Source: Escherichia phage HMD-P10
Sequence record: PV469800.1
Length of the DNA: 64,000 nucleotides
Reading direction: 5' to 3' (one strand)
The notes beneath the pieces were generated by a model that saw only the letters and a list, made by a program, of their open reading frames with translations, ran no database searches and was not told the DNA's origin. Position numbers and translations under genes: made by a program. Positions 21,882 to 22,927 of this stretch are shown piece by piece. The stretch's first letter is position 1. Each line of letters begins with the position of its first letter.

Positions 21882-22322
21882 TTAGAATGGTTTTCTACGT
21901 TGCTTGTTAATATTAGCTTTCATAGCAGCTAAGTGGTTTTGCTGTTCAATCAGCCGTGAACGTTCTTGATGACTAAGTGCCATAGTGTTCACATTCTCAA
22001 TCGCTTGAGTGGCTTGCTTTAAAGCGCGACCAATCTTACCAGACATTTTGCGTTTTGCAATAGTTGCTTGATGTTTAGGCTCAACCACACGATAACCAAC
22101 ACCCATCGAAGCAACCAGATAAATCTTCTCTTCTTTAAGAAGCTTCTCAATAAACTTCTCAAGTCGGTTTAGACGTGTAAGCGCATAAGCTTTCATTTCA
22201 TCTTCGTACTTAACAATGTCACCTTGATAAGTTGGCTTCACAATACCTAAGAAGGTATCCATCTCAGAGTGTGATACAGTGTCACCGTAACTAAACTTTG
22301 CTGCTAATGCTTTTGTATTCAT
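21882..22322 (-). CDS. hypothetical protein
   Basis: 146 aa ORF; bracketed by repeat-rich intergenic regions. Confidence 0.4.
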   Translation of the reverse strand: MNTKALAAKFSYGDTVSHSEMDTFLGIVKPTYQGDIVKYEDEMKAYALTRLNRLEKFIEKLLKEEKIYLVASMGVGYRVVEPKHQATIAKRKMSGKIGRALKQATQAIENVNTMALSHQERSRLIEQQNHLAAMKANINKQRRKPF

Positions 22323-22324
22323 AA

Positions 22325-22927
22325 TTAAACGTTACCTTCTGAAATAACTTCTACAGAAAAACGACCAAAGCGTGGACGCCAATCACCTACACCACAAAGG
22401 TTGCCAGCATTCTCCAGAACCATCAAGAGTTCCTCTTTGGTGATTTGCTCTTCATCGAACATCAAACCGAACTCTACAGACCAGTCACGGAAGATTGGAC
22501 GGTAGCTCATAACTCGTGCTGTACCAATCTTAACAGACTTAGCATAGATAAAGTCTGGATTCTTAGCAAGTTCTTGTGGGTTTGCTGGACAGTTCTTGAT
22601 AGTCATTGGGAAGACTACATCTGTCAGCATAATGGCTCGGTCAATTACCTTACCAAGTTTGTTGAGTTTCGCACCAGACTTGATGCAAGCCTCAATCATC
22701 TCACCGTTCATAACAAAACCTAGTTGCTCATCGTAGTAACAAGAGGTTACCAGTTGACTTTCTGCTAATAGCGCATAGTCTTCATCAGTCTTTTTACGTT
22801 TACTGGACAGAGACTTGTGATATTTTGTCAGAGGGTTTAATGGGTCTGACAGCGTATCAGCGTGGCTCAGGAAAGGACGAGTACCAGTGATTTTGATATT
22901 TAACAGTTTCATAGCATTTAGCTCCAC
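22325..22927 (-). CDS. hypothetical protein
   Basis: 200 aa ORF; start may be at a downstream Met (MKLLNIK). Confidence 0.4.

Follow-up and report, generated by a model that had tools for sequence, protein, structure and literature searches.

The stretch of DNA analysed here (the window, 64,000 nucleotides) comes from Escherichia phage HMD-P10 (PV469800.1), a Felix O1-like phage, and covers about 64 kb of a phage genome of roughly 88 kb. A 2.1-kb query over the gene-pair region matched 238 phage records at 89–93% identity, nearly all of them Felixounavirus genomes of Escherichia, Salmonella or Shigella. Two adjacent open reading frames occupy the center of the locus, with ligase, DHFR, thymidylate synthase and polymerase as neighbor genes, and both are present as a preliminary description of the sequence had given them, at 22325..22927 (minus strand, 200 aa) and 21882..22322 (minus strand, 146 aa). 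The same description had called attention to an identical element of 56 nucleotides in direct orientation on the two sides of the pair, and inspection of the window bears this out, with one exact copy on each side and no others within the 64 kb. Read along the coding strand, the order of features is a promoter, a leader hairpin, two guide-RNA genes (U1 and U2), vipr, vap1, a hairpin with a T-run, three further guide-RNA genes (D1, D2 and D3) and a closing hairpin (Table 1).

Table 1 Features of the HMD-P10 locus and of related sequences. Positions are those of the window unless a separate locus (L005 and so on) is named.
Feature	Position	Strand	Remarks
Promoter, sigma-70-like	23283..23310	-	TTGACA-16-TATACT; 11/12 consensus matches; right after ligase stop codon
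Leader hairpin	23208..23258	-	-26.6 kcal/mol, z = -6.9; 0/200 shuffles as stable; inverted repeat I6
vrRNA U1	23122..23210 (ends approximate)	-	11 GGYNN units 23210-23156 and hairpin-pseudoknot tail
56-nt element, copy 2	23100..23155	-	U1 tail and start of next spacer
vrRNA U2	22988..23082	-	12 GGYNN units 23082-23023 and GGGTGGATGG-type tail
vipr	22325..22912	-	195 aa; 36pp_D match; mechanical ORF reaches GTG 22927
vap1 (VIPR accessory protein)	21882..22322	-	146 aa
GC-rich UUCG hairpin and T-run	21846..21870	-	3' of vap1, ahead of downstream guide array
vrRNA D1	21719..21817	-	13 units 21817-21753 and tail
vrRNA D2	21587..21680	-	12 units 21680-21621 and tail identical to U1 tail
56-nt element, copy 1	21565..21620	-	D2 tail and start of next spacer
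vrRNA D3	21449..21548	-	13 units 21548-21484 and GGAAGGATGG-type tail
Closing hairpin and T-run	21403..21449	-	Inverted repeat I5; ends locus; overlaps promoter of next gene
Hairpin-forming spacers, one before each tract	23212-23254, 23085-23118, 21820-21853, 21683-21717, 21550-21583	-	Conserved core GTCTT...AGGGT...TTTAA; 3' arm enters first units
Promoter-like site	21402-21430	-	TTGACA-17-TATTTT; within closing hairpin
Signal-peptide-like gene	20974-21360		128 aa
Baseplate hub gene	7816-8613	+	After tape-measure gene
Chimeric vrRNA of BPS17L1	L005:1517-1576	-	vipr-less relative
vrRNAs of humlepung	L006:1645-1704, 1517-1571	-	vipr-less relative
Satellite-borne vrRNAs	L012:4700-4764, L013:5468-5537, L016:5381-5430, L017:5419-5483	-	SUSP1-type tail

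A search of PDB sequences identifies the larger protein, which matches chain 36pp_D, named 'SUSP1 Vipr protein', along its full 195 residues (99% identity, E = 1e-128). This protein is the core of VIPR (Viral Interference Programmable Repeat), a system described in two bioRxiv preprints of 2026 (10.64898/2026.04.26.720920 and 10.64898/2026.04.26.720927). The start of vipr is probably ATG 22912, giving 195 aa, and not GTG 22927, giving 200 aa, because the solved SUSP1 protein and the relatives of 195 aa begin with MKLLNIK. Cryo-EM of the SUSP1 complex named residues that contact G1, G2, Y3, the skip base and the non-target strand (bioRxiv 10.64898/2026.04.26.720920, 10.64898/2026.04.26.720927), and 13 of the 14 residues so named are identical in the window protein (H17, K33, R39, E71, M72, K82, G87, K88, R138, C173, D177, W178 and R179); at the fourteenth, given as T175 in the paper, the window protein and the PDB sequence both have V175. 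The smaller protein is identical at 145 of 146 positions to the product of the gene directly 3' of vipr in SUSP1, and vap1 of SUSP1 enhanced protection (bioRxiv 10.64898/2026.04.26.720920, 10.64898/2026.04.26.720927). That no motif could be assigned to either protein was a fair statement from the letters of the sequence, since profile searches of Pfam, NCBIfam and PADLOC return no match for Vipr or Vap1, and in PHROGs both match only families of 'unknown function'. Vap1 has close relatives in Felix-like phages only, and an exhaustive search finds 234 remote homologs of like size.

What, then, are the repeats on either side of the pair? They are guide-RNA genes and not insertion scars. The two repeat-rich intergenic regions (21361-21881 and 22913-23316) hold tracts in which GG recurs with a period of 5 nt, and a scan of both strands of the whole window finds five such arrays of 6–12 in-phase units each, all on the minus strand and all in these two flanks. 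When the window was shuffled 100 times with dinucleotides preserved, no array of at least six in-phase units appeared. Counted by GGYNN units there are 11–13 per guide RNA (vrRNA), with two vrRNAs upstream and three downstream of the gene pair. As a control, the identical scan applied to the SUSP1 locus gave one upstream and three downstream arrays, matching the one upstream and three downstream vrRNAs obtained there by small-RNA sequencing (bioRxiv 10.64898/2026.04.26.720920, 10.64898/2026.04.26.720927). Among 254 units taken from 21 vrRNAs, G occupies position 1 in 79% and positions 4–5 carry about 1.9 bits of entropy; because units were extracted by their positions 2–3, the conservation seen there is in part built in. 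The first G is degenerate in several units of D3.

Every tract closes with one of three tail types, of which the GGGTGGATGG type at the end of U2 is that of the single upstream vrRNA of SUSP1. The tails share a hairpin and a four-pair pseudoknot in which 98.8% of cells are paired and 8 of the 9 pairs show compensatory changes, compared with 28–43% pairing in controls with slid partners. Folding energies of the tail hairpins alone are unremarkable (z = -1 to -2), and Rfam contains no family that matches within 21300-23400, even at E = 1. In SUSP1, small-RNA sequencing and pull-down showed transcription of the vrRNAs, their processing to about 100 nt and their binding by Vipr (bioRxiv 10.64898/2026.04.26.720920, 10.64898/2026.04.26.720927), and by analogy the same steps would occur in HMD-P10.

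Regulatory signals frame these elements at both ends. The promoter next to the ligase gene is likely the start of a single vrRNA-vipr-vap1-vrRNA transcription unit, and it is kept in relatives, including those that lack vipr. The 3' arm of the leader hairpin that follows extends into the first repeat units of U1, and the hairpin is possibly a processing site. A hairpin-forming spacer also precedes each tract, and these spacers may be a processing signal by which the guides are excised from a long transcript. The hairpin between vap1 and D1 looks like a terminator. A promoter-like site lies within the closing hairpin, just 5' of the signal-peptide-like gene; the terminator of the VIPR unit and the start signal of the following gene thus overlap.

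With a probability of roughly 0.93, we assign the gene pair and its flanks to a type II VIPR system of the SUSP1 clade whose guides are aimed at a satellite. The locus is therefore a member of a system already described, and it falls in the clade that was characterized; the role proposed for it in HMD-P10 is transferred from the SUSP1 ortholog on the basis of 99% identity. For that ortholog, which is 98.5–99% identical, the mechanism is established: Vipr is a RAMP-like protein that polymerizes on vrRNAs of 9–16 GGY/NN units with a pseudoknotted tail, and the complex recognizes double-stranded DNA through the NN dinucleotides, with one base skipped from each to the next, and acts as a transcriptional silencer that requires no PAM (bioRxiv 10.64898/2026.04.26.720920, 10.64898/2026.04.26.720927). 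In HMD-P10, each GGYNN unit would be bound by one Vipr protomer, which would sequester GGY and present the NN dinucleotide. The resulting filament would pair with double-stranded DNA matching NN at 2 of every 3 positions, with a skip of one nucleotide, and an R-loop triplex would form and block transcription, an effect that Vap1 would strengthen.

A central question is which DNA the five guides would recognize. Guides of the SUSP1 clade converge on a satellite with a phage-like baseplate hub (bioRxiv 10.64898/2026.04.26.720920, 10.64898/2026.04.26.720927). The baseplate hub gene of the window has up to 94% nucleotide identity to a chromosomal gene annotated 'phage baseplate protein', and a match to it is present in 474 of 5,426 complete E. 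coli genomes (about 9%); a second search, with satellite DNA as the query, finds the island in 479 genomes. This island carries Felix-like tape-measure and baseplate genes, and from the shared tail genes and the legend of fig. S14 of the preprint we infer that it is a satellite of Felix-like phages. The identity of up to 94% in the baseplate gene suggests that phage and satellite have exchanged genes recently. The target scan sampled 16 islands of the about 479 satellite-bearing genomes, and these occupy three chromosomal sites, yciI-tonB, ymdF-wrbA and yecN-yecD, each class having its own large recombinase gene.

Guides were scored by comparing their NN dinucleotides with both DNA strands, either at full length or with the GGYNN unit adjoining the tail omitted. 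U2 scores 23/24 at full length and 22/22 without its last unit at an intergenic site of one island (L007), and 21/22 in two further islands. The three downstream guides match large recombinase genes: D2 that of the wrbA class in three islands (21/24 at full length, 19/20 without the last unit), D1 that of the tonB class in five islands (20/26 and 20/24), and D3 that of the yecD/DUF72-site class in three islands (20/26 and 20/24). Each satellite recombinase class is matched by a single downstream guide. Without the last unit, the score of each of these four guides was reached by none of 300 shuffles of that guide, and at full length the scores of D1 and D3 are not above those of shuffled guides. 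Omission of the last unit is a post hoc choice with which independent guide-target pairs of other phages agree: among the guide-target pairs of L007–L017, the last GGYNN unit before the tail is nearly always mismatched and the other units match. This last unit may contribute nothing to specificity.

U1 has no significant target among the islands; its best score is 17/20 in the set of 16 loci, followed by 16/20, and 115 of 300 shuffles reach 16 in 11 loci. The 17/20 match and two of the four 16/20 matches fall in the intergenic region of about 500 bp that holds the U2 site. In L007, the U2 site lies 25–60 bp downstream of a promoter-like element.

The spacing of the matches agrees with the code established for SUSP1. 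Skips of 0, 2 or 3 nt gave background scores only, and guides of three other Felix-like phages, SUSP1 included, match these islands only at a skip of 1. Natural VIPR targets place the skip bases at codon position 3 (bioRxiv 10.64898/2026.04.26.720920, 10.64898/2026.04.26.720927), and this is the case at the D2 and D3 sites. At the D1 site the skip bases fall at codon position 1 and not at the wobble position, and for this reason D1 is the weakest of the four targets. Exact-pattern scans of IMG/VR gave 0 matches for U1, D1 and D3, and 0 also for the U2 pattern that served as a positive control, so this collection does not contain these satellites.

Some satellites carry a vrRNA of their own that ends in a SUSP1-type tail, with no vipr gene in the stretches fetched (Table 1). 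These satellite-encoded guides have no match above shuffled guides in the 64-kb window. A guide common to L012 and L017 has a 21/24 match between torZ and cmoB, at L014:1334-1369.

Taken with the proposed mechanism, these matches would place two guides, U1 (not significant) and U2, at the intergenic region just 3' of a promoter-like site, and three guides, D1–D3, at large recombinase genes, one for each class of integration site. The role of the locus is likely to be the silencing of a satellite that would otherwise parasitize the phage, and such silencing perhaps prevents satellite excision and late-gene expression.

Could the system instead serve mainly to regulate genes of the phage itself or of the host? 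VIPR silences transcription without a PAM, U1 has no significant target, and about 24 kb of phage sequence falls beyond the window, all of which would be compatible with such a function. However, no guide has a match of at least 80% within the 64-kb window, and four of the five guides match above shuffle inside the island, whereas none does so in the host flanks fetched with the islands. Moreover, the sets analyzed in the preprints contain no self-targeting (bioRxiv 10.64898/2026.04.26.720920, 10.64898/2026.04.26.720927). Regulation of phage or host genes as the main function is, for these reasons, highly improbable, and a satellite remains by far the better candidate for the target.

The distribution of the module among relatives bears on how the locus is built. 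Searches with tblastn find Vipr in 117 Felix-like records at 92.8–100% identity, and the surrounding locus is common to about 259 records, so that about 45% carry the module; by record label, Vipr is present in 76 of 119 Escherichia phages versus 17 of 77 Salmonella phages. Two deposits under other names, GU169904.1 (Staphylococcus phage SA1, 91676-92263) and MG065668.1 (Campylobacter phage A126), contain Felix-like sequence 97–98% identical to the locus and are probably mis-assigned or contaminated. Comparison with a relative that lacks vipr, Salmonella phage BPS17L1, shows homology that runs from the ligase gene to 23172, in the U1 tract, and resumes at 21522, in the D3 tract, so that both junctions fall in GGYNN tracts. 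What remains in BPS17L1 is the promoter with the leader and a single chimeric vrRNA. In Escherichia phage humlepung the same promoter is retained together with two vrRNAs, and vipr and vap1 are absent from its complete genome. Recombination between guide units is the simplest explanation for the boundary between presence and absence.

These comparisons allow evaluation of the view put forward in the preliminary description, in which the pair is seen as an insertable cassette with direct repeats at its borders and as a candidate for an anti-defense or host-shutoff function. Much of the architecture that it proposed holds: the pair belongs with the repeats in a single functional unit, which is accessory and has its junctions inside the repeats. 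Variability among relatives, a junction in repeat elements and the lack of matches in Pfam, PADLOC and NCBIfam are indeed what such a cassette would show. Neither protein has clear homology to conserved core replication proteins, and the pair is not universally present at this position without flanking repeats in relatives. However, the repeats are neither cassette boundaries nor simple regulatory hairpins but genes for guide RNAs with covarying structure, and they are not simple insertion scars because vipr-less relatives still retain a repeat unit. The proposed function finds no support, since the proteins are near-identical to the experimentally characterized Vipr and Vap1 and the sequence-specific guide matches are to a phage satellite and not to host defense genes. 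An anti-defense or host-shutoff cassette is consequently scarcely credible. Equally hard to credit is a decaying, non-functional remnant, as might be suggested by the loss of vipr and vap1 in about half of the relatives and by the degenerate first G in several D3 units, given that both ORFs are intact and 99% identical to active SUSP1 proteins, the functional residues checked are all kept, the promoter and tails are intact, the guides are current against extant satellites (U2 22/22, D2 19/20) and the degenerate D3 units still match their target.

The vrRNAs that persist without vipr raise a separate question. The orphan guides of humlepung match satellites at 17/18 and 18/20, and over the two vipr-less relatives examined the orphan guides have matches of 83–94% to extant satellites. 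We hypothesize, tentatively and as an idea more apt to fail than to hold, that the protein pair is a dispensable core in a guide array that persists without it, and that orphan guides would act in trans with the Vipr of a co-infecting relative, or as decoys. If this is true, co-infecting phages and satellites would share guide RNAs as a resource or compete for them.

The satellite-directed VIPR system proposed here for HMD-P10 can be compared with several known systems. The SUSP1 locus shares with HMD-P10 the gene order, with the ligase gene on one side and the same gene downstream on the other, the three tail types, the GGYNN code and the satellite family of the predicted targets, and its proteins are 98.5–99% (Vipr) and 99% (Vap1) identical to those of HMD-P10. 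The two loci differ in that SUSP1, a Suspvirus, has one upstream guide whereas HMD-P10, a Felixounavirus, has two, and the NN sequences of all five HMD-P10 guides are unlike those of SUSP1. More remote VIPR loci, that of a Pseudomonas fulva prophage among them, resemble HMD-P10 in having vipr followed by a Vap1 homolog and GGYNN arrays on both sides of the pair, an arrangement observed in two distant loci, yet in the loci examined Vipr is only 45–48% identical and the tails are of the form GGGCT.... The P. fulva guides target regulators of resident prophages and not a satellite (bioRxiv 10.64898/2026.04.26.720920, 10.64898/2026.04.26.720927).

A mechanistic parallel is the Cas7 backbone of class 1 CRISPR systems and CRISPRi, in which, as in VIPR, a RAMP-fold filament assembles on the guide, a thumb flips out bases at regular intervals and transcription is silenced through binding to DNA (bioRxiv 10.64898/2026.04.26.720920, 10.64898/2026.04.26.720927). 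VIPR differs from class 1 CRISPR-Cas in that 2 of every 5 RNA bases are read against 2 of every 3 DNA bases, and in having neither a PAM nor a nuclease. A search for repeats at the locus gives vrRNA units and tails only, with no CRISPR-type array of direct repeats of about 28–37 bp and unique spacers, and neither protein has a match to cas1, cas2 or other cas genes in PADLOC, Pfam or NCBIfam. Phage ICP1 carries a complete type I-F CRISPR-Cas system against the PLE satellite of Vibrio cholerae, which acquires spacers and degrades its target. Both cases would involve a lytic phage with an RNA-guided system aimed at a chromosomal satellite that parasitizes it; to our knowledge, VIPR is distinguished by one small protein, the lack of a known adaptation module, and repression instead of cutting.

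Through this assignment, two 'hypothetical proteins' and two unexplained repeat regions become a named and mechanistically understood unit, which affects more than 100 deposited Felix-like genomes. VIPR has been put forward as ancestral to CRISPR and as a minimal DNA binder that can be programmed, made of one protein of 20 kDa and a guide of less than 100 nt. Orphan guides, an unpaired last unit and one downstream guide per recombinase class are absent from the main text of the preprints (supplementary data aside), and they bear on how VIPR repertoires evolve and are shared. A prediction for the use of HMD-P10 follows, namely that its performance would depend on whether the targeted satellite is present in the host.
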